Positions 31,939 through 49,207 of a stretch of 64,000 bases of DNA are shown in pieces. The stretch is taken from positions 24,294 through 88,293 of the forward strand of contig JAGNJW010000008.1 of the NCBI GenBank assembly GCA_018000455.1. Direction: 5' to 3'. Position numbers and translations under genes: made by a program. The DNA comes from Acidobacteriota bacterium (GTDB lineage Bacteria; Acidobacteriota; Vicinamibacteria; Vicinamibacterales; UBA2999). The stretch's first letter is position 1. Every line of letters begins with the position of its first letter. Under the pieces are notes generated by a model, which was not told the origin of the DNA, did not search any database, and saw only the letters and a list, made by a program, of their open reading frames with translations.

Positions 31939-34440
31939 ATGACCGACGCCGAACGCTGGGTCGCGGTGAAAGCGCTGGTCGGGGACGCCCTCGACCTCGC
32001 GCCCGAGGCGCGCGCGGCGTGGCTCGCCGCCCAGGACGTGTCCGAGGACCTGCGCGAGGAGGCCGCCGCGCTGCTCGATGCCGACGCCCGCGCGGGACCG
32101 TTCCTGGTCCGGGCCGCGATCTTCGAGACGGCCGCCGCCGGTGCCGTCCACGATGCCACCCGCGCGGCCGCGGCGCCGGCGATCGGGCCAGGTCAGCGTC
32201 TGGGGGCCTATCGCGTCGAACGCGTCATCGGCGAGGGTGGGATGGGCACGGTCTACCTCGCCACGCGGGCCGACGACGCCTTCGACAAACAGGTCGCGAT
32301 CAAGCTCGTGCGGGCGGGGCTGGCCGGTCCAGGGCTCGTCGAGCGCCTGCGCGAGGAACGGCGCGTGCTGGCGTCCCTCGATCACCCCAACATCGCCCGG
32401 CTGCTCGATGGCGGCGCCACCGACGACGGCGTGCCCTACGTGGTGATGGAGTACGTCGACGGTCTGCCCGTCGACGCCTACTGCGAGGCACGCGGCACGA
32501 CGGTCGCCGGGCGGGTCGCGCTCGTGCGGCACGTCTGCGACGCGGTGCACGACGCGCATCGCAATCTGGTCGTGCACCGCGACATCAAGCCCGGCAACAT
32601 CCTGGTCACCGCCGACGGCACGCCGAAGCTGCTCGACTTCGGCATCGCCAAGGTGCTCGGAGGGGTGGCAGCCTCACGCAGCCAGACCGTGGGCGCGATG
32701 ACCCCCGACAGCGCCAGTCCTGAACAGGTCACCGGCGGCGCCATCACGGTGGGCACCGACGTCTACGGCTTGGGCCTGCTGCTCTACCGGCTGCTCGCCG
32801 GCCGCGGGCCGTTCGACACGGCCGGCAGCGCCGCGGCGCTGCTCCGGGCGGTGTGCGAGGACGATCCGGTGCCGCCCAGCCGGCTCGCTCCCGGCCTGTC
32901 GATTCCGGCGGATCTCGATCGCATCGTGCTCAAGGCGCTGGCCAAACGTCCGCAGGATCGCTATGACACGGCCGCCGCGCTCTCCGACGACCTCGGTCGC
33001 CTGCTCGACCAACGGCCCGTCAGGGCCACGCCCGATTCGCTCGCCTACCGCAGCCGTCGCTTCGTGGCACGGCACCGGTTGGGCACCGCGGTTGCCGCCA
33101 CGGCCATCATCGTGCTCCTGGCCGGCGTCGTCGCCACGGCCTGGCAAGCAGGTATCGCGCGACGCGAACGAGCCCGTGCCGAGCAGCGCTTCGACGACCT
33201 GCGCCGCCTCGCCAACACGCTCATCTTCCGCATCCACGACGCGGTGAGCGAGCTGCCGGGGTCGACGCCCGTGCGTCAGACCATCGTCGAGAGCGCGGTC
33301 GTCTATCTCGACACGCTGGCACGCGAGGCGACCGACGACCTGCCTCTGCAGCGCGAGTTGGCGGCCGCCTACGAACGCCTGGCCTCGGTGCAGGGCCGAA
33401 GCGGCGCGGCCAACCTCGGCGACGTTGCCGGCGCCCGCGTCAACCTCGACAAGGCGCTCGCGTTGAGGCGCGCCATCGCCTCGCCGCCGCGGGCAACGCC
33501 CGTCGACACGGTCGCCCTCGCCACGACCCTCGAACGCCTGGCCAACCTCCCGGCGACTCCCGAGACGCGATCGGCCCTCGCGCTCGAGGGTCTGGCCCTG
33601 CTCGACGCCCTGCCCGCCGCCGATGCCGCCACGCTCGGGGCCAGAGCCGCCCGCGCCGCCCTCGTGTGGAACGACGCCGTGAGCCGCGCCGATCGCAAGG
33701 ACTACGCCGCCGCCGCGGAGCGCTACCAGCAGGCCGCCAGCCTGTTCGAGCAGTTGATGCTCGCCGACCCGGCCGGCGCCGTCGCGCGTGGCCGCAGCCT
33801 GGCGATCGCCTACCGCAACATCGGCTCCGTCCGCTGGATGCTGGACGATCGGCCGGCCGCCATCGAGGCCTACCGCCAGGCCCTGGCCCTCGACGAATCG
33901 CGGCTGGCCACGCAGCCCGACAACACGACCTGGCGGCTGGATCTGTCCTACAGCGTGTCATCCATCGCCTTTGCCGAGCTCGAGACCGGCGCGACGGCGG
34001 CGGCGGTCGCACACTACGAGCGAGCGCTCGATCTGCGCCAACAGGCTCTGACCGCTGATCCGCAAAACGACCAGGCCCAGGACGGCGTGATGCGGGCGCA
34101 GCGGGCCCTGGCCCGCGCGCTCGGGCTGCAGGGGCAGGAGCGCCGGGCGCTCGACGCGTCGGCCGCGGCAGTGCGGATGGCGGAAGTGCGGCTCCAATCA
34201 CGGCCGGACGCCGGCCGGGCCGCGGCCCTCGTGGAGTCGCTGCTCGCCGAGGTGCGGCTGCGCCGGCACTTCGCCGCGCGCACGCCCGCGCACGTCCAGG
34301 CCGCCTGTCTCGCGTTCGATCGCATCGAGGTCGTGCGGCGGCAGGCGGTGGCAGCCGGCGCCACGCGTGCGCCCGGCCCCGGCGAGGCGGAACTGGCGGG
34401 CGAACGCGGGTCGTGTCCGGCCCCGCCGCGCGGGCGCTGA
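31939..34440 (+). CDS. Ser/Thr protein kinase with a TM segment and a long TPR-like C-terminal region
   Basis: Kinase motifs: GEGGMGTVYLA, VAIKLV, HRDIKPGNIL, DFGIAK. A TM segment at about AVAATAIIVLLAGVVATAW is followed by repeated helical TPR-like units. Confidence 0.9.
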   Translation: MTDAERWVAVKALVGDALDLAPEARAAWLAAQDVSEDLREEAAALLDADARAGPFLVRAAIFETAAAGAVHDATRAAAAPAIGPGQRLGAYRVERVIGEGGMGTVYLATRADDAFDKQVAIKLVRAGLAGPGLVERLREERRVLASLDHPNIARLLDGGATDDGVPYVVMEYVDGLPVDAYCEARGTTVAGRVALVRHVCDAVHDAHRNLVVHRDIKPGNILVTADGTPKLLDFGIAKVLGGVAASRSQTVGAMTPDSASPEQVTGGAITVGTDVYGLGLLLYRLLAGRGPFDTAGSAAALLRAVCEDDPVPPSRLAPGLSIPADLDRIVLKALAKRPQDRYDTAAALSDDLGRLLDQRPVRATPDSLAYRSRRFVARHRLGTAVAATAIIVLLAGVVATAWQAGIARRERARAEQRFDDLRRLANTLIFRIHDAVSELPGSTPVRQTIVESAVVYLDTLAREATDDLPLQRELAAAYERLASVQGRSGAANLGDVAGARVNLDKALALRRAIASPPRATPVDTVALATTLERLANLPATPETRSALALEGLALLDALPAADAATLGARAARAALVWNDAVSRADRKDYAAAAERYQQAASLFEQLMLADPAGAVARGRSLAIAYRNIGSVRWMLDDRPAAIEAYRQALALDESRLATQPDNTTWRLDLSYSVSSIAFAELETGATAAAVAHYERALDLRQQALTADPQNDQAQDGVMRAQRALARALGLQGQERRALDASAAAVRMAEVRLQSRPDAGRAAALVESLLAEVRLRRHFAARTPAHVQAACLAFDRIEVVRRQAVAAGATRAPGPGEAELAGERGSCPAPPRGR

Positions 34441-37685: not shown

Positions 37686-39497
37686 ATGCGCCGCGTTCTG
37701 TACGTCGCTCTCGCGCTCGTCGTCACCGCCGCCACGATGTCCGATCCGTCCGCACAATCGCTGCCCCAACCCATTCGCTACACGCTGCGCTTTCCGGCGC
37801 CGGCGACGCACTACGTCGAGGTCGAGGCCGTCTACCCGACGGATCGGCGGCCCGAGGTGGAGCTGATGATGGCCGTGTGGACGCCCGGTTCGTATCTGGT
37901 GCGCGAGTACGAGCGGCAGGTCGAGAACCTGACGGTGTCCGACGACGGTGGGCGGGCGCTGACGGCGGTGAAACCGGCCAAGAACCGCTGGCGCATCGCG
38001 ACCGCTGGCGCCGCCACCGTCACCGTGCGTTACCGCGTCTACGGTCGCGAGATGACCGTGCGCAACAACTGGGTCGAGGCGGGCTTCGCGATGCTGAACG
38101 GCGCGCCCACCTTCATCACGCTGGCCGAGCGCACCGCGCGGCCCCACGAGGTCACGATCGTGCCGCCGCCCGCCTGGCAGGGCTCGGCCACGCCGCTCAT
38201 GCCGCTGGCGGGCCGGGCCTACAGCTACCGTGCCGAGGATTTCGACACGCTGGTCGACAGTCCGATCATCGTCGGCAATCCGGTGGTCAGAAGCTTCGAG
38301 GTGGACGGCAGAGCGCACCACCTGGTGCTCGAAGGCGATCCCTCGCTCTTCGACGCCGATCGTGCCGCCGCCGACGTGAAGAAGATCGTCGAGGCGGGCA
38401 GGGGCGTGATGGGGCGTTTCGACTATCCCCACTACTTCTTTCTCAACATGGTGACCGAGTCGGGCGGCGGCCTCGAACACAAGAACGCGTTTCTCACCAT
38501 GTCGAGCCGTTTCACGACGCGCACCCGCCGCGCCTACGTGAACTGGCTCAACCTCGTCGGCCACGAGTACTTCCACAACTGGAACATCAAGCGTCTCAGG
38601 CCGATCGAACTCGGCCCCTTCGACTACGAGGGCGAGAACTACACGAAGAGCCTGTGGGTGGGTGAGGGCTTCACCGACTACTACGGCGCGCTGCTCGTGC
38701 GTCGTGCCGGGCTGCAGACCGAGGCCGAGTACTTCGACGAGCTATCGAATGCCATCGAGCAGGTGCAGATGCGGCCGGGTCGCAACGTGCAGCCGGTGGA
38801 CATGGCGTCGTTCGATGCCTGGATCAAGCAGTATCGCCCCGACGAGAACAGCGTCAACACCAGCATCGACTACTACAGCAAGGGCGCGGCCATTGCCTTC
38901 ATGCTCGATGCCAAGATCCGCAAGGCGACCGGCGGCGCCAAGACGCTCGACACGGCGATGCGCCTGGCCTACGAGCGCTACTCGGGCGCCACCGGCTACA
39001 CGCCCGAGCAGTTCCAGCAGACGATGGGTGAAGCCGCCGGCGTCGACTTGGGCGCGTGGTTCGCCGACGTCGTGAGCGGCACGACGGAACTCGACTTCGC
39101 GGAGGCGCTCGATTTCTACGGGCTGCGCTTCACGCCGGTCGACCTCAAGACCGCGCGGGCCACGATGGGCGCCAGCACCCGCAACGACAACGGCCGGCTG
39201 GTGGTGTCGATCGTGCGACGCGGCACACCGGCCTACGCCGCCGGCGTCAACGTGGACGACGAGATTGTCGCCATCGACGATCTGCGCGTGCGCGCCGATG
39301 GCCTGGTGGCGCGCATGGACCAGTACAAGGTGGGCGACACGGTGCGCCTGCTGGTCGCGCGCCGCGACCGGCTGCTCCCCTTCGACGTGACGCTCGCGGC
39401 CGAGCCGGGGCGGCCGTGGCGAATCCAGCCGAAGCCAGACGCGACTGCCGAGCAGAAGGCGCGACTGGCCGCCTGGCTGGGCGCGACAAAAGGCTAG
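37686..39497 (+). CDS. M61 glycyl aminopeptidase with C-terminal PDZ domain (copy 2)
   Basis: Track ORF 36357..39497 is over-extended. The ATG at 37686 gives MRRVLYVALALVVTAATMSDPSAQ. Zinc motif HEYFHNWN. Confidence 0.9.
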   Translation: MRRVLYVALALVVTAATMSDPSAQSLPQPIRYTLRFPAPATHYVEVEAVYPTDRRPEVELMMAVWTPGSYLVREYERQVENLTVSDDGGRALTAVKPAKNRWRIATAGAATVTVRYRVYGREMTVRNNWVEAGFAMLNGAPTFITLAERTARPHEVTIVPPPAWQGSATPLMPLAGRAYSYRAEDFDTLVDSPIIVGNPVVRSFEVDGRAHHLVLEGDPSLFDADRAAADVKKIVEAGRGVMGRFDYPHYFFLNMVTESGGGLEHKNAFLTMSSRFTTRTRRAYVNWLNLVGHEYFHNWNIKRLRPIELGPFDYEGENYTKSLWVGEGFTDYYGALLVRRAGLQTEAEYFDELSNAIEQVQMRPGRNVQPVDMASFDAWIKQYRPDENSVNTSIDYYSKGAAIAFMLDAKIRKATGGAKTLDTAMRLAYERYSGATGYTPEQFQQTMGEAAGVDLGAWFADVVSGTTELDFAEALDFYGLRFTPVDLKTARATMGASTRNDNGRLVVSIVRRGTPAYAAGVNVDDEIVAIDDLRVRADGLVARMDQYKVGDTVRLLVARRDRLLPFDVTLAAEPGRPWRIQPKPDATAEQKARLAAWLGATKG

Positions 39498-39560: not shown

Positions 39561-41417
39561 TTACTGGGCGGCGAGGTCGGTCAGACCCGACTCGCCCCAC
39601 ACGAGTGATTCGCCCCAGATGAGCGTGTCGCCCCACACGAAACTCTGGCCGTCGATGACGAGGAGGCCCTCGCCCCAGACGATCGACTCGCCCCAGATGA
39701 AGCTGGTGGAGGTGACGATGTTCTCGCCCCAGATGAACGTGTTGCCCCAGACGAGCGCCTCGCCCCAGATCAACGTATTGCCCCACACGATGTTCGACTG
39801 CCACGCCGGCAGGTTCGAATAGATGGCGTCGCCGTAGAGTGTCGACGCGCCCCAGATGATGCGGCGGCTCCACGGCAAGGTAAAGCCGCCGAGCTTGCTC
39901 GATTCGACGACCGGTGTCGCCAGCCACCAGCTGCCCAGGACGCGCGACGGGTCGAGACTCTTGGCCAACGCGAGGGCGCCGAGGCCGTTGAGGCCGCCGG
40001 CGCCCTGCGTCAGCAGATCGAGCTCGGGGCCCGAAGCCGACTCCCTGACCGGCACCGCGCTGAACTGCAGCATGGCTTTTACGGCGTTGGGCGGCAGGTC
40101 GCGGCCGGCGGCCGGGAACGCCGCCCGATTGGCCTCGAGCAGCAGGGCCACGACACCGGTGGTCGTGGCGGCCGCCATGCTCGTGCCGTAGAGCTTCACG
40201 GCGTCGCCGGAGGCCGACAGCGTGCTCGCCGTCTTCGAAAGCTCGGAGCCCGCGGCGCTCGTTGAGAAGAGACCATGGCCCGGCGCCAGCACATCGGGCT
40301 TGGCGAAGCCGTCGTACCACGTCGGCCCGCGCGAACTGAACGCCGAGGCCGTGTCGTCGCGCCGGTCGGCCGTGCCGTGCACGTCGAGGCTGCCGGCCGT
40401 GATGGCCGACGGCGCGTTGCCGGGTGACGTGATGCCAGCGTAGCCCGAGACGCCGGTCGTCGGATTCTGGCCGTAGTTGCCGGCCGAGGTCACGACCACC
40501 AGGCCCGCCGCCACCGCCTTCTCGACCGCCTGCACCAGCGGGTCGGTCTTCGCCGGCTCCAGAATCGGATGACCGAGCGACAGGTTGATGATGTGGATGT
40601 TCAGATTGCTCTTGTTCGCGACCAGGAATTCGATCGCCTTGATCAGATGACTCGTCTTCCCGGCGCCGGTCGCGTCCAGCACCTTGATGCCCACGAAGTG
40701 GACCTTGGGGGCGATGCCGCCGAACGTGAGCGAGGAGGCGCCGATGAGACCGGCCACATGCGTGCCGTGTCCGTAGGCGTCTGTCGCGGTCGACGTCGTG
40801 CCGTTGCGGCCGGCCTTCGTCGTGAAGTCGTAGAACGCCGAGATGCGGCCCTGGAACTGGGTGGCCGTGCCGTCGATGCCTGAATCCACCACCGCCACGC
40901 CCACGCCGGCGCCGGTGCGCCCGCTGAACTGCGTGCCGAGCGATCCCATCAGTGCGCTCCACTGCGTCGTTGAAGCCGACAGATCAGCAAAGGCGCTCCA
41001 CCACTCGGTCGTGCCTGAAGTGGACGTCGTCGTCGCCGTGCTGGTTGAACTCGTCTTCTTGCTGCCGGCGCCAGCGGCGTAGACCAGTGCGTCAGCCGAG
41101 ATGCCCTCGACCGCCCCGAGTCCGGCGAGCTCGTCGATGTCTTCGGGCGCCAGCACCGCGCCGATGCCCGCCACCGACGGCATCTCGTCGTTGACCTTCA
41201 GCTTGCGCGCCTTGAGTGCCGCCCGCACTTCCTTCTCGCGGCCGGGCACGACGCGAAGAATTACACCGACCGGGCGCGATCCCTGCCTGGCGTCGCTGAC
41301 CGCGCGGTCGAACTTGCGCGAGTTCCTCGGGCCCTGGGCAAACGCTACCCCGGCGGCGAGTGCGAGTACGGCGCACGCCAACAGGCCAGTGCGCCAGATC
41401 ACGTTTGGTCTCGTCAT
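39561..41417 (-). CDS. Secreted S8 subtilisin-like serine protease with C-terminal degenerate x-[IL]-[VI]-W-G-x hexapeptide repeats
   Basis: Likely start at 41417 gives MTRPNVIWRTGLLACAVLALAAGVAFAQ. Catalytic motifs VAVVDSGI, GHGTHVAG, GTSMAAATTTG. Tail: ...NIVWGNTLIWGEALVWGNTFIWGENIV...FIWGESIVWGE...FVWGDTLIWGESLVWGES. Confidence 0.85.
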   Translation of the reverse strand: MTRPNVIWRTGLLACAVLALAAGVAFAQGPRNSRKFDRAVSDARQGSRPVGVILRVVPGREKEVRAALKARKLKVNDEMPSVAGIGAVLAPEDIDELAGLGAVEGISADALVYAAGAGSKKTSSTSTATTTSTSGTTEWWSAFADLSASTTQWSALMGSLGTQFSGRTGAGVGVAVVDSGIDGTATQFQGRISAFYDFTTKAGRNGTTSTATDAYGHGTHVAGLIGASSLTFGGIAPKVHFVGIKVLDATGAGKTSHLIKAIEFLVANKSNLNIHIINLSLGHPILEPAKTDPLVQAVEKAVAAGLVVVTSAGNYGQNPTTGVSGYAGITSPGNAPSAITAGSLDVHGTADRRDDTASAFSSRGPTWYDGFAKPDVLAPGHGLFSTSAAGSELSKTASTLSASGDAVKLYGTSMAAATTTGVVALLLEANRAAFPAAGRDLPPNAVKAMLQFSAVPVRESASGPELDLLTQGAGGLNGLGALALAKSLDPSRVLGSWWLATPVVESSKLGGFTLPWSRRIIWGASTLYGDAIYSNLPAWQSNIVWGNTLIWGEALVWGNTFIWGENIVTSTSFIWGESIVWGEGLLVIDGQSFVWGDTLIWGESLVWGESGLTDLAAQ

Positions 41418-41868
41418 GGAAGTCACTATGCAGCCTCTTCTCACGGCGCGCGGCGTTCGATGCCTCGCGCTCCGCCCTGCGTAACAGCAAACGCGCTGCC
41501 ATCTCGGTTGCGCTCTCGCCGCCGAGTGCGCAAGTCGTTGAGCGTGGAGCGGTTGCTGCCGGCACTTGGCCGTCTCACCGGCCGGCGAAGTGCGATTCGC
41601 CAGGTCCGGCTATTCGAAAATTCGGCGCGCCAGGCGAGCCTCAACCCGAAAAGACGGGTCTGCGGACGCGCCCGCCGGGGGGCGCATCTACCGGTTGAGC
41701 CCGCATCAGGGGCACTGAACTTTCGGTTGGTCGACGTTCGCCTGAGCCGAGGTTTCGACTCGCCGAGGCGCGCCCGCCGAGATCGCTGCGACCAGTGCTG
41801 GACGTTGCGCGATCGTAAACGACTTGTAGGCAACGACTTGACAGGCTAAGTGCGTCGCCGGCGGCAAT

Positions 41869-41896: not shown

Positions 41897-44389
41897 ATGA
41901 AAATCCGGAACAAGCACTGGTCGTCTGGCTGGACGGCCGTCGCGATTGCTCTCCTTGTCATCGCCACGGGAGCGGTGGCGCCGAGCGCCCAGGGACGCAG
42001 TGGCCAGAGACCGCCGCGGCGTGCCGATCGCGCCGACCTCGAGCTGGCCGCGCGGCTCAACCAGGGAGACGGCAGCGACCGCGAGCGCGTGATCATCACG
42101 CTCAAGCCCGGAGCCAAACGCCGGATGCTGCAGGACCTGCAGGCCTACGGCGAGCGCGCCGACAAGGACTTCGGCGTGATCGAGGCCGTGTCCGGCCGCA
42201 TGTCGCGCCGCTTGCTCCGCCAACTGCGGAATCATCCCGACGTCGTGTCGATGTCGGTCGATGCCGACGTCACGCCGATGAGTGTGGCCGGCGTGAGCGG
42301 CGCGGCCCAGGGCTCGCCGTATTCACTGCGCAGCACCCTCGGCCTTGAAGCCACCACCTACGCCGCGGCGTCGGTGGCGGCCGGCGCCACCACCTCGGCC
42401 AAGGGTGGGTCGGTGTCCACCCTGTCCTGGTCGCACACGGTCGCCGCCGGCAGCAATCGCCTGCTGCTCGTGAGCACCGCGCACCGCGACGGTACCAAGT
42501 ACGTCTCGGGGGTCACCTTCGGCGGGGTCAACCTCGCAGTCAGGATGTCTGCGGGCACCAAGGAGAACAGCACGGCCCTCTACTACCTGGTGAATCCTCC
42601 GGTGGGCACCGCCACGGTGCAGGTGACGATGACCGGCGCCGTGCACGTCGCGGCGTCGGCCACGACCTTCACCGGCGTCGATCCAGTGTCGCCGTTCAGC
42701 CCGGGCGCGTCGGGCGTCGGGTCGAGCACCACCGCCTCGGTCTCGCTTCCGAGCACGGTGGGCGCGGTGGTCGTGAACGCCGTGGCCGCCAATGGCGATG
42801 CTGGCACGCTGAGCCTCCTTGGCACCGGCGCCAGCCTGTGGAACGACAACACCGGCACGAGCAAGACCAACATTCGCGGCGCGGCGGCGACGCGGCCGGG
42901 CGGCGGCACCGTGACCGTGGGCCGGACGCTGGCGGCCAGCAAGGCCTGGAGTATCGTGGCAACCACGCTGCAACCGGGCGTGGTGGCGGCGCAAACGGCC
43001 ACCACGACCCGCACGGGCGCGGGTGTGACCGTGGCGGTCATCGACTCCGGCATGCTGCTCGACGGCGGCCTTGCGACCCGGCTCAAGACCACGCGCGACT
43101 TCACGACCGGCAACGCCAATCCCCCGGCGGTCTCAGCCGTTGACGGCTACGGCCACGGCACGCATGTCGCCGGCCTCATCGGCAGCAACCAGGCCGAGAT
43201 CAAGGGCGTTGCGCCGGGGGTGTCGTATGTGAGCCTGCGCGTGCTCAACTCCTACGGCGTCGGCGCGACCAGCAACGTGATCAACGCCGTGCAGTGGGCC
43301 ATCACCAACAAGACCACCTACGGCATCGACATCATCAACCTCTCGCTCGGCCATCCCATCTTCGAACCGGCCGCGACCGACCCGCTCGTGCAGGCGGTGG
43401 AAGCCGCCGTGCGCGCCGGCATCGTGGTGGTGACCTCGGCCGGCAACATGGGCAAGAACCTCGTGACCGGCCAGATCGGCTACGCCGGCATCAGCTCGCC
43501 CGGCAACGCGCCATCGGCCATCACGGTGGGTGCCGTCAAGACGTTCGACACGACCACCCGCGCCGATGACCTGATTGCCGACTACAGCTCGCGCGGCCCG
43601 ACGTGGCACGACGGCTACGCCAAGCCGGACGTCGTGGCGCCCGGTCACCGCCTGCTCGGTCCCTCCTCGTCGAGCCAGACGCTCTACTGCCTGCTGGCGA
43701 CCCAGCGGGTGACCATCGGCGGGCGGCCGTACCTCACCTTGAGCGGCACCAGCATGGCGGCGGCCGTCACGAGCGGGTCGGTGGCGCTGATGCTCGAGGG
43801 GGCCAGGGCTGCGTATGGCGCCACGCCCACCGTCAACGCGGTGAAGGCGATGCTGCAACACACGGCGTTCCCGATGAGCGATGCTGCCGGCGCGCCGTAT
43901 CACGGCTTCGCGCAGGGCGCCGGAGCCCTGAACGCCGCGGGCGCGGCCGTGCTGTCGCAAGCCATCAACCCGGTCGCCACCAGCACCAACTGGCTGACGG
44001 TGGGCGTCTCCGAGTCGACGACCGTCGACGGGCAGAACATCGTGTGGGGCGAGAACATCGTGTGGGGCGAGAACATCGTCTGGGGCGAAGCCATCTACAC
44101 GAAGCGCGGCGCCTGGGCGAACAACATCGTCTGGGGCGAGAACGTCGTGTGGGGCAACAACATCGTCTGGGGAAACAACATCGTCTGGGGCAACAACATC
44201 GTCTGGGGCAACAACATCGTGTGGGGCCTGAATATCGTCTGGGGCGAAAACATCGTCTGGGGCGAAAACATCGTCTGGGGCGAGAACATCGTCTGGGGTC
44301 AGAACATCGTGTGGGGCGAGAACTTCCTCGCGCTCAACGAGCTCACGATCGGCTACCCCATGTGCGGCGGCGGACTGGAGACGATGTAG
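41897..44389 (+). CDS. Secreted S8 subtilisin-like serine protease with inserted beta-rich domain and C-terminal N-I-V-W-G-E/N hexapeptide repeat array
   Basis: Signal MKIRNKHWSSGWTAVAIALLVIATGAVAPSAQG. I9-like propeptide. Catalytic motifs VAVIDSGM, GHGTHVAG, GTSMAAAVTSG. There are 14 tandem hexapeptide units near the C-terminus. Confidence 0.85.
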   Translation: MKIRNKHWSSGWTAVAIALLVIATGAVAPSAQGRSGQRPPRRADRADLELAARLNQGDGSDRERVIITLKPGAKRRMLQDLQAYGERADKDFGVIEAVSGRMSRRLLRQLRNHPDVVSMSVDADVTPMSVAGVSGAAQGSPYSLRSTLGLEATTYAAASVAAGATTSAKGGSVSTLSWSHTVAAGSNRLLLVSTAHRDGTKYVSGVTFGGVNLAVRMSAGTKENSTALYYLVNPPVGTATVQVTMTGAVHVAASATTFTGVDPVSPFSPGASGVGSSTTASVSLPSTVGAVVVNAVAANGDAGTLSLLGTGASLWNDNTGTSKTNIRGAAATRPGGGTVTVGRTLAASKAWSIVATTLQPGVVAAQTATTTRTGAGVTVAVIDSGMLLDGGLATRLKTTRDFTTGNANPPAVSAVDGYGHGTHVAGLIGSNQAEIKGVAPGVSYVSLRVLNSYGVGATSNVINAVQWAITNKTTYGIDIINLSLGHPIFEPAATDPLVQAVEAAVRAGIVVVTSAGNMGKNLVTGQIGYAGISSPGNAPSAITVGAVKTFDTTTRADDLIADYSSRGPTWHDGYAKPDVVAPGHRLLGPSSSSQTLYCLLATQRVTIGGRPYLTLSGTSMAAAVTSGSVALMLEGARAAYGATPTVNAVKAMLQHTAFPMSDAAGAPYHGFAQGAGALNAAGAAVLSQAINPVATSTNWLTVGVSESTTVDGQNIVWGENIVWGENIVWGEAIYTKRGAWANNIVWGENVVWGNNIVWGNNIVWGNNIVWGNNIVWGLNIVWGENIVWGENIVWGENIVWGQNIVWGENFLALNELTIGYPMCGGGLETM
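44033..44317 (+). repeat. 18-bp coding tandem repeat (3 units, 33-nt interruption, 11 units)
   Basis: AACATCGT(C/G)TGGGG(C/A/T)(GAG/GAA/AAC/CAG/CTG) is repeated head-to-tail at 44033..44086 and 44120..44317. The units are nearly identical at the DNA level. Confidence 0.95.
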
Positions 44390-44424: not shown

Positions 44425-45096
44425 ATGGAGCTGATGCCGTTTCGCCCCAAACGGGATGCGCTGACCGGGCGTGATCCCGTGGTCGCGCTTCCCGCCGCCG
44501 GGATCACCTCGCCGGTCGACTGGCGTGAGGGTCTACCGGTGCTGCGCGGCCTCGGCCTCACGCTGCGTGAGCTGACGGCCGCCGATGCGCCGTCGCTTGC
44601 CGCGCAGCTCACGACGGCGCAGGTCACGCGGTTCATCTCGCCACCGCCGACAAGCGTGGCGGGCTTCGAGCGGTTCATCACCTGGACGCACCGCGAACGC
44701 GCCGCCGGGCGCTATGCCTGCTTCGCGGTCGTGCCCGACGGCGACACCGTGGCCGTCGGTATCTTCCAGATCCGCCGGCTCGACGGCAAGGACGGCGTCG
44801 CCGAGTGGGGCTTCATCCTCGGCGAGGCATATTGGGGCACCGGGTTGTTCCTCGCCGGCGCCCAGCTCGTCGTCGACTTCGCGTTCGAGACGATGGGCCT
44901 GGCGCGCCTCGAGGCCCGGGCCTCGACAGCCAACGGCCGCGGCAACGGGGCCCTGGCGAAGCTCGGCGCCGCAAGAGAGGCAGTGCTGCGGCAATCGTTC
45001 GACCGCCACGGCCAGTGGCACGACCAGGCGCTGTGGGCGATTCTCAGCGACGACTGGCCGGCCGCACGCTGCAGCCGCGCCGCGGTCGTGCACTGA
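44425..45096 (+). CDS. GNAT family N-acetyltransferase (RimJ/RimL-like)
   Basis: Internal ATG at 44425 of track ORF 43603..45096. Sequence reads ...LRELTAADAPSLAAQL...FAVVPDG...VGIFQIRRLD...AEWGFILGEAYWGTGL...LARLEARASTANGRGNGALAKLGA. Confidence 0.8.
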   Translation: MELMPFRPKRDALTGRDPVVALPAAGITSPVDWREGLPVLRGLGLTLRELTAADAPSLAAQLTTAQVTRFISPPPTSVAGFERFITWTHRERAAGRYACFAVVPDGDTVAVGIFQIRRLDGKDGVAEWGFILGEAYWGTGLFLAGAQLVVDFAFETMGLARLEARASTANGRGNGALAKLGAAREAVLRQSFDRHGQWHDQALWAILSDDWPAARCSRAAVVH

Positions 45097-45402
45097 AACC
45101 CCTCTCAGGCGCCGCCCCCCAGGCAGGCGAGGCGCCCGCCTGGCCAGTTGCGCGCACCACATCCGCCGGCGATTGTCTTCACATCGCCGCACTCGATCGG
45201 GTCGTCATCGCCGCCGAAATTTTGACTCACGGGGTTCAGGGCCCCAAGTTGAGCCAAATTATCGACTCGGCGACGCTGAACCGACGACGGCCACCCCGTT
45301 TCCTGCCGAAGAATTCCTCTGTAAACACTGTGGATAGTGGTCTTTGCGGGCACAGCGCAAGGCGTCCCGTGGGCTGGCACCGTCGTTGCCACTGGATGGG
45401 GC

Positions 45403-46527
45403 ATGAGACTTCTGAAACTCCGGGCCCCCTTCCTTGGACGCGCGATCCTCGCGCTGTTCTGTTTGGCGGCAGTGCTTCCCGGCGCGGCTAAAGCGCAGGT
45501 ACCACAACTGCAGGTGGTGACCGTAGCAGTCGTGCCGGGACAGCCGGCCACTGTTCTCGTCACGGGCACTCCCGGCGACTACGTCGCCATCGGCGGCAGC
45601 GTCGTCGGTGCAGGGTTCTCGGCCGGCGGCCAGGCCTTATCGCTCGGCTCGGATGTCGTCCTTGTGGCGCAGGGCCGACTCGATGCCGGCGGTCACGCCA
45701 CGTTCCGGTTCGTCCCGCCCTTCCTCGGGACAACGGTTGACCGCTACTACGTGCAAGCCGGCACCTCGACGAATCCGGGGTTTGCGCCCCTGGCGCTGAC
45801 GCCGGGGCAAGTCGTGTTGAATGCCGATCTGGCCGGCGTGCTGATTGGTCCCGCCGGCGCGGATGGAGCTCCAGGACCTGCCGGACCTCAGGGAGCGCCA
45901 GGAACTCCAGGCCCGGAGGGCGCGACGGGGCCGCAGGGACCCGCGGGACCACACGGACCCACTGGCGCGAACGGCGCCGACGGGACTCCCGGGCCGCAAG
46001 GTCCAACCGGTGCGACTGGCGTCGATGGCCCCTCCGGGCCACATGGTCCCGCAGGCCCGCAAGGCCCACAGGGATTCACGGGTCCACAAGGACCACATGG
46101 ACCGACGGGACCGCAGGGGCCTGCCGGCGCGACCGGTGCTCAAGGCATTCAGGGACCCGTCGGGCCGAGCGAAGTCTTCATCACCCAGCCCGCAGAGACG
46201 GTCAAGCTCACCGAACAGATCGAGACCACGGTCCTGGCGTTCAAGTTGCCTGCAGGTAGCTACCTGCTCCAGTCCCACATGCTGCTCGACAACGGCGACA
46301 CCAAGGTCAATCTCACCTGCACCCTCTACGAGGAAGGCACCGTGCTCGGCGTTGCGTCCCTGTTCGTCGAAGCTGATCGGGACGTGGCCGTGTCGATGAC
46401 CTCCGCGAGCGTGGTCGTCGATTCCGCCGTCATCACCATGACATGCCTTGCCGACGACGCTGGAGCCCAGGCGTCGTACCGCACGCTGACGGCGGTGAAG
46501 GTGGGCTCGGTCTCCATTCAGCAATAA
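45403..46527 (+). CDS. Secreted collagen-like (Gly-X-Y) triple-helix repeat protein with globular N- and C-terminal domains
   Basis: ATG at 45403 gives [32 protein letters not shown]. It has about 35 uninterrupted G-X-Y triplets and a beta-rich C-terminal domain of about 120 aa. Confidence 0.8.
45847..46164 (+). repeat. Gly-X-Y collagen-like coding repeat
   Basis: [51 protein letters not shown]...[11 protein letters not shown]. Confidence 0.9.
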
Positions 46528-46633
46528 GAGGCGCAAACCCAGGCCGGCGAACATCAACCAACAGTCCGGCTAGCTCCGGAAGTTGCTCGGAGCCCCAACC
46601 TTCTCCGGCGTGAGTTCGTCTACTCCTACGCCG

Positions 46634-49207
46634 ATGATCTGCGAGAAATGCCGCGTGCTGCCCGTCCTTGTGGTGTGTCTGCTTGGCTCCGCCCCAACAG
46701 GTTTGGCGGCACCGCCCGACGGCGCCGACCGCGAGCGCGAACGGGCGATCGTGAACGCGCTAGCCGTCTCGGCCGCCGGACCAATCGTCATCGACGGCCG
46801 GTTCGATGAGCCCGTCTGGGCGCTGGCTCCAGTCGTCGGCGAGTTCGTGCAGCGCGAGCCGGCCGAGGGCGCCGAACCCACCGAGCGCACCGAAGCACGG
46901 CTCGCCTACGACGCTGTTGCGCTCTACGTCGCCATCCGCGCCTTCGACCGCGAACCTGGCAAGATCACCGGCATGCTCACTCGTCGCGACGAGCGTTCGC
47001 CGTCCGACTGGCTCAAGGTCGCCATCGACTCGTACTACGACCGCCGCACCGCCTACGAGTTCGGCGTCAATCCCGCGGGCGTCAAGACCGACCGCTACTA
47101 CTTCAACGACGGCGCCAACGACGACAGCTGGGACGCCGTGTGGGACGTGCAGGTGACACGCGACGCCGAGGGCTGGCGCGCCGAGTTCAAGATCCCGTTC
47201 TCGCAGCTCCGCTTCGCCCGCGGCGGTGGCCCGGTGGGCGTCGCCATCATCCGCGATCTGCCGCGCGCGAACGAGACGGCGACGTGGCCGCTGCTCGCCA
47301 GAAGCGTCAACGGCTTCGTCTCGCAGTTCGGCACCGTCAACGGCCTGCAGGCCGGCGCCTCGCCCAAGCGCCTCGAGCTCATGCCGTACACGGTGGGCGA
47401 GGTCATCCGCGCGTCGAAAGACCTCGAGAATCCGCTCTGGCGCGCGACCAACCCTGGCGCCAACGTTGGTGTCGACCTCAAGTACGCCGTCACGCCGGCC
47501 CTCACGCTCACCGCCACGCTCAACCCCGACTTCGGCCAGGTGGAAGCCGATCCGGCGGCCGTGAACCTCGATGCCTTCGAGCTCTTCTTCGCCGAGCGCC
47601 GGCCGTTCTTCGTCGAAGGATCTGGCATCTTCCGCTTCAACATGGACTGCAACGACGGCGACTGCACGGGGCTGCTGTACTCGCGCCGGATCGGACGCTC
47701 GCCGCAGGGCTCGGCCGATACCGACGACGGCGAGTACAGCGAGGCCCCAGTGTCGGCCACCATCCTCGGCGCCGCCAAGCTCACCGGCCGGATCGGACAG
47801 TTCTCGGTGGGCGCGCTCAGTGCCGTCACGCAGAAAGAGCAGGCGACGATCGCCGCCGGGCTCACGCGCCGCCGCCAGACCGTCGAGCCGCTCACGAGCT
47901 TCAACGTGCTGCGTGCCAGGCGCGAGTTCGCCAACAACTCGAACCTCGGCGTGATGCTCACGACCACCAACCGGCAGTCCACCGCCGATACCGCCTTCCT
48001 GGCCGACAACAGCATGGCTGGCGGGGTGGACTACGACTGGCGACTCAGCCCGCGCTACAGCGTCACCGGCTTTCTCGTCGGCAGCCGCATCGCTGGCAGC
48101 GAGGCGGCCATCACCCGCCTGCAGGAAAACGCCGTCCACAACTTCCAGCGGCCCGATGGCGACTACCTCACCTTCGACGATACGGCCACGACGCTGGCGG
48201 GTCACGCCGGTGCCGTCGGGGTCTCGAAGATCGGCGGCGAGCGCGTGCGCTTCAGCGCCAACTACGGCTACAAGAGCCCGGGCTTCGACTCGAACGATCT
48301 CGGCTTCCAGCGCCGCGCCGACGAGCGCACGATGAATCACTGGCTGCAGTGGCGCGACCAGACGCCCGGCAAGTACGTGCGCCAGTACATGGTCAACCTC
48401 AACCAGTGGGCCGGTTGGAACTTCGGCGGCGACCGCCTGTTCGGCGGCGGCAACATCAACATGCACTGGACGTTCCAGAACAACTGGCGCACGGGCTTCG
48501 GCTTCAACATGAACGGTGGCGGCCTGCGCGATCGCTCGACGCGCGGCGGCCCGGTCGTCAGGACCAACGACAGCCTGGGCCTGTGGCACTACATCGACCT
48601 CGACGACCGCCGCGCCGTGACGCCGGGCTACAACGGCTACTTCGAGCGCGACGGCCAGGGCACGTTGCGCTTCAACGCCAACCCCCGCCTCACTTGGCGG
48701 CCGAGCCGAGCCATTCGCCTCGAGACCGGCGTGCGCTTCAACCGCAACGACGACGATGCGCAGTGGGTCGAGAACGTGGACGAGGGGGGCGCCACCCGCT
48801 ACGTGTTCGGACGGCTCGAGCAGCGCACCGTGGCCATGACGCTGCGCGCCAACTACACGATGTCGCCGACGCTGTCGTTCCAGAGCTACGCCGAGCCATT
48901 CGTGTCGGCCGGGCGCTACCAGCGCTTCCGTGAGCTCACGAACGGCCGGGCCGGGGCTTACGCCGACCGCTTTGAGCCCTACGCCTACACGGGCGATGCC
49001 GACTTCAACTACCGGTCGTTCCGCACGACCAACGTGCTGCGCTGGGAATACCGGCCGGGGTCGTCGCTCTTCGCCGTGTGGCAGCAGGGACGCCAAGAGG
49101 ACGGCGACCGCGGCGACTTCCGCTTCGGCCGCGACTTCGGGGGCCTGTTCTCGTCGCCCTCCCGCAACGTGTTCCTGGTGAAGTTCAGCTACTGGTTCAA
49201 TTACTAG
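46634..49207 (+). CDS. Large outer-membrane-type protein, CBM9-like N-terminal domain plus DUF5916-like beta-barrel
   Basis: ATG at 46634 gives MICEKCRVLPVLVVCLLGSAPTGLAAP. Also seen: IVIDGRFDEPVWALAPVVGEFVQREPAEG...LYVAIRAFD. The C-terminus ...FLVKFSYWFNY has an aromatic terminal residue typical of OM barrels. Confidence 0.7.
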   Translation: MICEKCRVLPVLVVCLLGSAPTGLAAPPDGADRERERAIVNALAVSAAGPIVIDGRFDEPVWALAPVVGEFVQREPAEGAEPTERTEARLAYDAVALYVAIRAFDREPGKITGMLTRRDERSPSDWLKVAIDSYYDRRTAYEFGVNPAGVKTDRYYFNDGANDDSWDAVWDVQVTRDAEGWRAEFKIPFSQLRFARGGGPVGVAIIRDLPRANETATWPLLARSVNGFVSQFGTVNGLQAGASPKRLELMPYTVGEVIRASKDLENPLWRATNPGANVGVDLKYAVTPALTLTATLNPDFGQVEADPAAVNLDAFELFFAERRPFFVEGSGIFRFNMDCNDGDCTGLLYSRRIGRSPQGSADTDDGEYSEAPVSATILGAAKLTGRIGQFSVGALSAVTQKEQATIAAGLTRRRQTVEPLTSFNVLRARREFANNSNLGVMLTTTNRQSTADTAFLADNSMAGGVDYDWRLSPRYSVTGFLVGSRIAGSEAAITRLQENAVHNFQRPDGDYLTFDDTATTLAGHAGAVGVSKIGGERVRFSANYGYKSPGFDSNDLGFQRRADERTMNHWLQWRDQTPGKYVRQYMVNLNQWAGWNFGGDRLFGGGNINMHWTFQNNWRTGFGFNMNGGGLRDRSTRGGPVVRTNDSLGLWHYIDLDDRRAVTPGYNGYFERDGQGTLRFNANPRLTWRPSRAIRLETGVRFNRNDDDAQWVENVDEGGATRYVFGRLEQRTVAMTLRANYTMSPTLSFQSYAEPFVSAGRYQRFRELTNGRAGAYADRFEPYAYTGDADFNYRSFRTTNVLRWEYRPGSSLFAVWQQGRQEDGDRGDFRFGRDFGGLFSSPSRNVFLVKFSYWFNY

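Follow-up and report, generated by a model that had tools for sequence, protein, structure and literature searches.

A hexapeptide N-I-V-W-G array at the C-terminus of an Acidobacteriota S8 protease belongs to an uncharacterised, selectively maintained repeat module

Short strand-turn tandem repeats and C-terminal extensions of subtilases are general kinds of element that are already known. In the ice-binding beta-helix of Lolium perenne the repeat reads N-x-V-x-G, with the x residues exposed and rows of Asn stabilising the core (PMC5744647). The C-terminal triple-stranded beta-helix of T4 gp5 is built on a VxGxxxxx octapeptide, the transferase hexapeptide of LpxA and LpxD (Pfam Hexapep) on the consensus [LIV]-[GAED]-x2-[STAV]-x. 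Subtilases may carry a non-catalytic extension after the S8 domain, as in the beta-jelly-roll of Tk-SP (3AFG) or the PPC and P-domains, and such domains would be expected to act in stabilisation, anchoring or export. Here we describe a tandem array of hexapeptides, x-N-I-V-W-G, at the C-terminus of an S8 protease encoded in a 64,000-nucleotide stretch of DNA from an Acidobacteriota bacterium (contig JAGNJW010000008.1, assembly GCA_018000455.1, positions 24,294 to 88,293; hereafter the window, to which all positions refer). The array is a genuine, selectively maintained protein module and forms the C-terminal extension of a large S8 clade; undescribed so far are the NIVWG motif, its variable spacing rule and the coupling of the protease gene to that of a GNAT acetyltransferase.

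The protease gene and its parts are as follows, with AlphaFold2 confidence given as the predicted local distance difference test (pLDDT) and ORF standing for open reading frame.

41897..44389, + strand: gene of an 830-aa S8 protease, subtilisin-type ('AprX-like'), putatively secreted (ORF, PF00082, catalytic residues)
43016..43924, + strand: Peptidase_S8 catalytic domain, residues 374-676 (Pfam; AlphaFold2 pLDDT mostly >90)
43967..44032, + strand: pre-array segment NPVATSTNWLTVGVSESTTVDG with the family motif W-L..T..G (conserved in relatives; pLDDT ~87-95, packed with the S8 domain in the model)
44033..44086, + strand: repeat block 1, three units, QNIVWG ENIVWG ENIVWG (always three in the orthologous clade; predicted short strands, pLDDT ~76-95)
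44087..44119, + strand: linker EAIYTKRGAWA (E[AS]IYT[NK]R.AWA in orthologues; '..Y.N..AW..' at the equivalent place in the wider family)
44120..44317, + strand: repeat block 2, 11 units of x-N-[IV]-V-W-G (9-13 in orthologues, 3 in the closest relative; pLDDT <50)
44318..44389, + strand: degenerate 15th unit ENFLAL, 17-aa tail NELTIGYPMCGGGLETM and stop codon (tail C-[GS]-G-G kept in the closest orthologues)

When translated in the frame of the protease ORF, nucleotides 44033-44317 read as 3 + 11 in-frame 18-bp units corresponding to residues 713-807, the 11 units of block 2 being drawn from NNIVWG, ENVVWG, LNIVWG, ENIVWG and QNIVWG. Tandem Repeats Finder delimited the tract at 44030-44323 with a period of 18, 16.6 copies and a score of 297, and with at most one mismatch allowed, the 15-mer unit consensus AACATCGTSTGGGGC was found at 14 places within the array and at one in the neighbouring paralogous gene, the chance expectation being 0.01. 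PF00082 matches the protein over residues 374-676 with 151.6 bits (cut-off 21.8; E 3.8e-44), and the triad D383 (VIDSG), H420 (HGTHVAG) and S619 (GTSMA), together with the oxyanion residue N517, falls in invariant columns of an 84-sequence alignment. An earlier note on this DNA, made from its letters, had proposed an in-frame hexapeptide array at the C-terminus of an S8 protease; the reading frame, the repeat finder and the Pfam match all confirm it.

At the DNA level the 14 units comprise 10 distinct sequences with a mean pairwise identity of 86%. Adjacent identical units are present (AACAACATCGTCTGGGGC twice, GAAAACATCGTCTGGGGC twice), and the longest exact repeat inside the array is 32 bp. 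The same note had allowed that the array might be an artefact of assembly, and indeed the window sequence is a contig of a metagenome-assembled genome (MAG) and repeats are prone to mis-assembly. That an error of assembly or of annotation produced the array is barely credible, given the 10 distinct units and the shortness of the exact repeats, the frame that stays open from the S8 domain through to a conserved tail, and comparable arrays in dozens of independent assemblies, including arrays of 12-16 units on contigs of 0.7-4.6 Mb. The exact 830-aa protein was found on a single public contig, JAHZTR010000081.1 (assembly GCA_020054605.1).

The array is not isolated, because a diverged paralogue next door and hundreds of relatives bear the module. 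Fifty-five related genomic loci were retrieved, nearly all of them in MAGs labelled Acidobacteriota/Vicinamibacterales, with a few from Acidimicrobiia and one from Solirubrobacterales. A word-indexed search with the 140-residue C-terminus returned 76 proteins, and an exhaustive HMMER scan over 1.84 billion cluster representatives returned 745 at E<=1e-3, of which 162 at E<=1e-10. Wherever the sequence is long enough the HMMER matches are S8 proteases, the exceptions being unrelated low-complexity proteins or read-through fusions. Three non-S8 matches (P0220, P0311 and P0304) were rejected as unrelated repeats of low complexity; P0300 and P0283 are fusions that arose by read-through into the downstream GNAT. 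The search for NIVWG arrays in other genomes that the earlier note had proposed was thus rewarding, with the module present in the 55 loci and in about 745 representatives, nearly all S8 proteases. When the catalytic domain and tail together were used as query, more than 7000 relatives were found, often named 'serine protease AprX' or 'S8 family serine peptidase'.

The tails of the 55 loci and of about 300 proteins keep one architecture: a W-L..T..G....W segment, the first unit or units, a linker, the main array and a short variable tail. The first unit has the form x-x-I-I/V-W-G across the family and is present in three copies in the clade of the window protein, and the linker is of the type G-[DE]-[AS]-[IV]-Y-x-N-x-x-A-W. 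The residues AIYTKRGAWAN, at first described as an interruption, are accordingly a conserved ancestral linker, found in orthologues and in the wider family, and not a break in a once-continuous array. Among 357 proteins with at least four units (median 10, range 4-23) the consensus is [D.45/E.15]-N.71-I.73-V.81-W-G.89, the invariance of Trp being by construction, since the search pattern demanded it. A strict six-residue period, also claimed at first, holds for the window protein and fails as a property of the family: a spacing of 6 accounts for 39% of unit spacings and 8, 9, 10, 11 and 12 are all common, the spacers ranging from 1 to 8 or more residues and being enriched in Asp, Gly, Ser and Asn. 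Spacings of 7 are rare (24 of about 3260, 0.7%), and the two-residue spacer that it implies seems to be sterically excluded.

Several relatives carry a Cys-x4-5-Cys pair in every spacer (L023 7511-9631, L032, L034 and the tails of L037-L046), for example QCEGDGCNNIVWG and DCAGADCDNIVWG, and some of their tails finish with a Thr-rich linker and GG[LSI]F at the extreme C-terminus. The tail of the window clade has a single Cys (...MCGGGLETM). In P0097, P0166, L048 and L052 the public assemblies or gene calls traverse the array in a wrong frame, giving pseudo-repeats of the HRLG- or QHRVG-type, which suggests indel errors within such arrays.

Neither Pfam nor NCBIfam matched the repeat in the full protein, the paralogue, the isolated C-terminus or 34 relatives, and no description of an NIVWG, IVWG or tryptophan ladder repeat was found in the literature searched. 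PDB sequence searches with both C-termini gave marginal matches to the hexapeptides of LpxD (E ~0.04) and eIF2B-epsilon, or nothing. The earlier statement that the array corresponds to no named repeat family therefore stands after searches of Pfam, NCBIfam, PDB sequences and the literature; we consider the repeat an uncharacterised family, having found no name, model, structure or paper for it.

Divergence was measured by protein-guided comparison of the window protein with two orthologues (loci L004 and L007). Synonymous divergence (pS) was 0.32 and 0.25 in the array versus 0.36 and 0.32 in the catalytic domain, and nonsynonymous divergence (pN) 0.03 and 0.02 versus 0.064 and 0.073. Val codons of the array are GTC:GTG 10:5, the neighbouring genes having a usage of 0.40:0.56, Glu codons are GAG:GAA 4:2 and Gly is mainly GGC, a synonymous mix near the background. 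Markers of individual units are common to the orthologues, namely ENVVWG as the second unit of block 2 and one LNIVWG. Taken together, an array pS close to that of the catalytic domain, a low pN, background codons and shared markers indicate that the units are old and positionally orthologous. As judged from these divergences, purifying selection acts more strongly on the array than on the enzyme core. That the 18-bp units are nearly identical is explained by the constraint on five of the six residues together with a strong codon bias towards G or C at third positions.

Recent expansion or ongoing concerted evolution, which the earlier note had read from this near-identity, is consequently not borne out, the array pS matching that of the catalytic domain, the codon mix being that of the background, and the three-unit block with its linker being conserved across the clade and recognisable family-wide. 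What does vary is the number of units, from 3+3 to 3+13 overall. The closest relative, P0077, lies on a 2-kb short-read JGI contig whose flanks share ~93% nucleotide identity with the window and has 3 units in block 2 instead of 11; its third unit runs straight into the tail, a clean in-frame difference of eight units. The short array of P0077 could be real or could reflect a collapse in short-read assembly. Thus, of the length variation that had been predicted, the part that stands is that copy number differs between relatives (9-13 units in block 2, eight fewer in P0077), and the evidence for it is between lineages only. Over evolutionary time units are gained and lost in frame, as read from these alignments.

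It is unlikely that the tract is a contingency locus, that is, a recently expanded or concertedly evolving repeat through which slippage or recombination varies the length of a surface protease. The adjacent identical units, the range of block 2 among orthologues and the clean junctions of P0077 would be consistent with it. Units held near-identical at synonymous sites, as such a locus would have them, are not what pS between species, the codon mix and the 32-bp maximum repeat reveal; in addition, an 18-bp unit is unable to switch the reading frame, and the short version comes from a 2-kb short-read contig in which the array may be collapsed.

The closest motif analogue of the array is the grass IRI repeat (LpAFP/LpIBP, 3ULT, PF21300 LbR_Ice_bind), since NIVWG is an N-x-V-x-G in which the two x are I and W, and the family consensus retains this core as N(.71)-I-V(.81)-W-G(.89). 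The similarity at sequence level is slight: the window protein has no PF21300 match, its array aligned to 3ULT by BLASTP with one gap per unit at E 0.029 in a single comparison, the best relative against PF21300 (P0283) reached 20.7 bits, below the cut-off of 30, and a relative with a seven-residue period (P0071) matched 3ULT at E 0.0022, a weak value with heavy compositional bias. The two repeats differ in period (7-8 in the grass repeat, 14-15 residues per coil; 6 here, or 8-12 in relatives, with 7 avoided), in the residues that would be exposed (Thr, Ser and Val in the grass repeat, Ile and Trp in the NIVWG units) and in context, the NIVWG units being placed on a bacterial protease.

The transferase hexapeptide shares with the array a six-residue period and one aliphatic residue plus Gly per unit. 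Its consensus is not that of NIVWG, the module is not part of an acyltransferase, and the spacing of relatives varies, so that a constant period of six (18 residues per coil) is not found across the family. The statement that the array is neither an LpxA-type hexapeptide nor a pentapeptide repeat thus proved correct. The pentapeptide repeat A(D/N)LXX (period 5) and the RTX repeat GGxGxDxUx (period 9) were considered and rejected on period, consensus and the lack of a Pfam match. A divergent left-handed beta-helix of the LpxA/LpxD type with three units per turn is quite improbable as an explanation of the array. The period of exactly six in the window protein and the exactly three units of block 1 would suit it, as would some marginal LpxD matches (phmmer E ~0.04, up to 0.045; NCBIfam E 0.012-0.038). 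Pfam Hexapep gave no match at E<=1 in the window protein or its C-terminus and none in the 34 relatives; besides the periods of 8-12 in relatives, Trp would fall on the L/I/V position in the HMMER register and on the small-residue turn position in the other register, and AlphaFold2 did not build a left-handed beta-helix.

With the C-terminal domains of subtilases the module shares its position as a non-catalytic extension after the S8 domain. Those of Tk-SP and the PPC and P-domains are globular and of fixed size, whereas the NIVWG module consists of a variable number of five-residue cores and has no detectable similarity to them in sequence or model. The beta-helix of T4 gp5 is likewise made of a very short repeat with one aliphatic residue and one Gly; its period and motif differ, and the NIVWG module is known here from sequence and monomer models only. 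Intertwined oligomeric beta-helices are typically unpredictable from a monomer, which would fit the failure of AlphaFold2 on the array.

The best explanation overall, which we hold as somewhat more probable than its negation, is a conserved strand-turn module on an S8 clade that forms a rod-like beta-repeat for tethering or self-association. What the data demonstrate is family membership, architecture and selection pattern; the fold and function proposed below are inferred. According to the model, the W-L..T..G....W segment and the first unit or units would pack on the protease domain. By analogy with N-x-V-x-G beta-roll and beta-helix repeats, N and V would face the core and I and W the outside, a pattern that fits a solenoid. 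The Gly and the acidic spacer residue would make the turn, where relatives appear to have inserted loops, some of them closed by Cys-x4-5-Cys; such spacers fit extracytoplasmic surface loops. The result would be a rod-like beta-solenoid or beta-ribbon with ladders of Ile and Trp, the length of which would be set by the number of units. Its folding probably depends on oligomerisation, Ca2+ or a ligand, and this need would explain why AlphaFold2 failed on the monomer. The likely job of the rod is non-catalytic: it may attach the enzyme to a surface, polymeric or hydrophobic (the envelope, an exopolysaccharide or the substrate), or mediate self-association. The hosts of the clade are soil Acidobacteriota (Vicinamibacterales) with some Acidimicrobiia and Solirubrobacterales, and its proteases have intact catalytic residues and appear to bear signal peptides.

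Several results weigh against such a rod. In a first AlphaFold2 run, on residues 363-830 with the 84-sequence alignment, the S8 domain, the segment before the array, block 1 and the linker were modelled at pLDDT ~76-98, and the first units formed short strands next to the S8 domain (positions 345-348, 351-354, 358-361 and 364-367 of the query); the 11-unit block fell below 50. A second run, on the C-terminus of the diverged paralogue with a 34-sequence alignment, gave a mean pLDDT of 43.9, again with the array below 50. Of the beta-helix or solenoid that the earlier note had proposed to check by structure prediction, block 1 was therefore modelled as short strands, and the main array was not modelled with confidence in either run. 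Monomeric beta-solenoids are usually recognised by AlphaFold, and because of these two low values no fold is supported for the main array. Moreover, the avoidance of spacing 7, the period of the grass IRI repeat (0.7% here), points to a geometry unlike that of the closest analogue, the predicted exterior of Ile and Trp would be unusual for a soluble monomer, and array lengths spread between 1-3 and more than 20 units would be compatible with a disordered or non-globular element too.

The last point leads to the possibility that the array has no stable monomeric fold, being a sticky segment of low complexity or of cross-beta (functional-amyloid-like) type, or a pro-region that is cleaved off after export. 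The low confidence of both runs and the highly variable unit number and spacer lengths speak for it, and cleavable C-terminal extensions are found in many secreted subtilases. We consider it an outside chance: conservation at five of the six positions extends across phyla and pN is below that of the catalytic domain, which implies precise structural or recognition constraints, and the Cys pairs within the spacers of relatives point to defined loops.

The genes around the protease bear on the role of the module, and those to which the text refers are the following.

37686-39497, + strand: M61 glycyl-aminopeptidase-like gene with a PDZ domain, abutting the paralogous S8 gene
39561..41444, - strand: paralogous S8 protease of 618-627 aa with a diverged C-terminal module (ORF, Pfam 153.2 bits, reading of the units)
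44425..45096, + strand: RimJ/RimL-like GNAT acetyltransferase gene, 35 bp after the protease stop codon (Pfam Acetyltransf_3, E 1.6e-22)
45337-46527, + strand: gene of a collagen-like protein, between the GNAT and DUF5916 genes (Pfam Collagen, Gly-Pro-x runs, Tandem Repeats Finder tract 45856-45960; partly conserved in L004 and L007)
46583-49207, + strand: DUF5916 protein with a weak CBM9-like N-terminal region (terminus ...KFSYWFNY)
31939-34440: ECF (extracytoplasmic function) sigma factor and Ser/Thr kinase, upstream of the peptidase genes

The paralogue reads, at 39594-39797, SNIVWG NTLIWG EALVWG NTFIWG ... ESIVWG ... DTLIWG ESLVWG, and this diverged architecture is retained in its orthologues. 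It is divergently transcribed and has a conserved mid-array insertion, 'EGLLVIDGQSFVWG', found in distant relatives too.

A GNAT homologue lies downstream on the matching strand, at -60 to +200 bp, in 38 of the 51 loci with an array-bearing S8 ORF, and three of ten loci lacking it stop at a contig edge. The pairing is found in Acidobacteriota and Acidimicrobiia, hence in at least two phyla. The stop codon of the S8 gene and the start codon of the GNAT gene often overlap, which suggests translational coupling. The nearest PDB sequence to the window GNAT is 2Z0Z (E 2e-9), and its closest solved relatives are of the RimJ/RimL type. It has no evident signal peptide, which both proteases appear to have. 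Some public gene calls merge the S8 and GNAT genes (P0300, P0283, L048). In about 16 loci a DUF5916 homologue is found close to the S8 and GNAT genes; L010 and L011 have S8, GNAT, S8 paralogue and DUF5916 in this order on one strand, with gaps of a few bases. The terminus of the window DUF5916 protein looks like the end of an outer-membrane protein.

On this arrangement one could build a bolder proposal, possible if doubtful, in which the module is a new structural class, a ligand-, Ca2+- or oligomer-dependent beta-solenoid or ribbon with external Trp/Ile ladders, which would act with the coupled GNAT, and often with the DUF5916/CBM9-like protein, as a system for export, anchoring or activation of the protease. 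The GNAT also invites the idea of a multi-core precursor of a ribosomally synthesised and post-translationally modified peptide fused to its own protease, with the GNAT as tailoring or immunity enzyme, in agreement with the numerous near-identical short cores, the S8 protease in cis and the conserved, translationally coupled N-acetyltransferase. This is highly improbable, since the spacers vary in length and sequence and contain nothing recognisable as a site of cleavage or recognition, the protein seems to have a Sec-type signal peptide and the GNAT to be cytoplasmic, no conserved maturation enzyme other than the GNAT is nearby, and the model places the first units within the folded enzyme. 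Ranked by falling likelihood, the rivals of the rod-like beta-repeat are the contingency tract, the non-globular, amyloid-like or cleaved segment, the LpxA-type helix, the multi-core precursor and the artefact.

Vicinamibacterales are soil bacteria that are abundant and for the most part uncultured, and the proteases they secrete are believed to take part in soil nitrogen turnover. A module that is borne by hundreds of these enzymes, that is more tightly constrained than the catalytic domain and that Pfam, NCBIfam and AlphaFold2 all miss is an annotation gap. Its definition would yield a searchable domain and a handle on the retention of proteases on cells or substrates, and perhaps a minimal beta-repeat scaffold of a new type, bearing an aromatic ladder; the tight coupling to the GNAT is a testable association.

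With regard to the rest of the protease, the N-terminal segment MKIRNKHWSSGWTAVAIALLVIATGAVAPSAQG resembles a signal peptide, and a fold search with the AlphaFold2 model, which reports on the S8 domain only, gave Tk-SP (3AFG) and Vpr (8JMW) as the closest solved folds of the catalytic part. A defence-system reading (IetS/IteS) was rejected because the generic S8 domain alone accounts for the matches (PADLOC IetS 57 bits; NCBIfam IteS 40 bits versus a cut-off of 900). Between the propeptide-like region and the catalytic domain lies an insertion of ~230 residues (residues ~135-362, 42300-43000) with no Pfam match, and some homologues bear a PF24517 or DNRLRE domain-containing label at this position. 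In the window the three peptidase genes, M61, the S8 paralogue and the S8 protease with the array, are consecutive, and cytochrome oxidase genes also lie upstream of this peptidase cluster.

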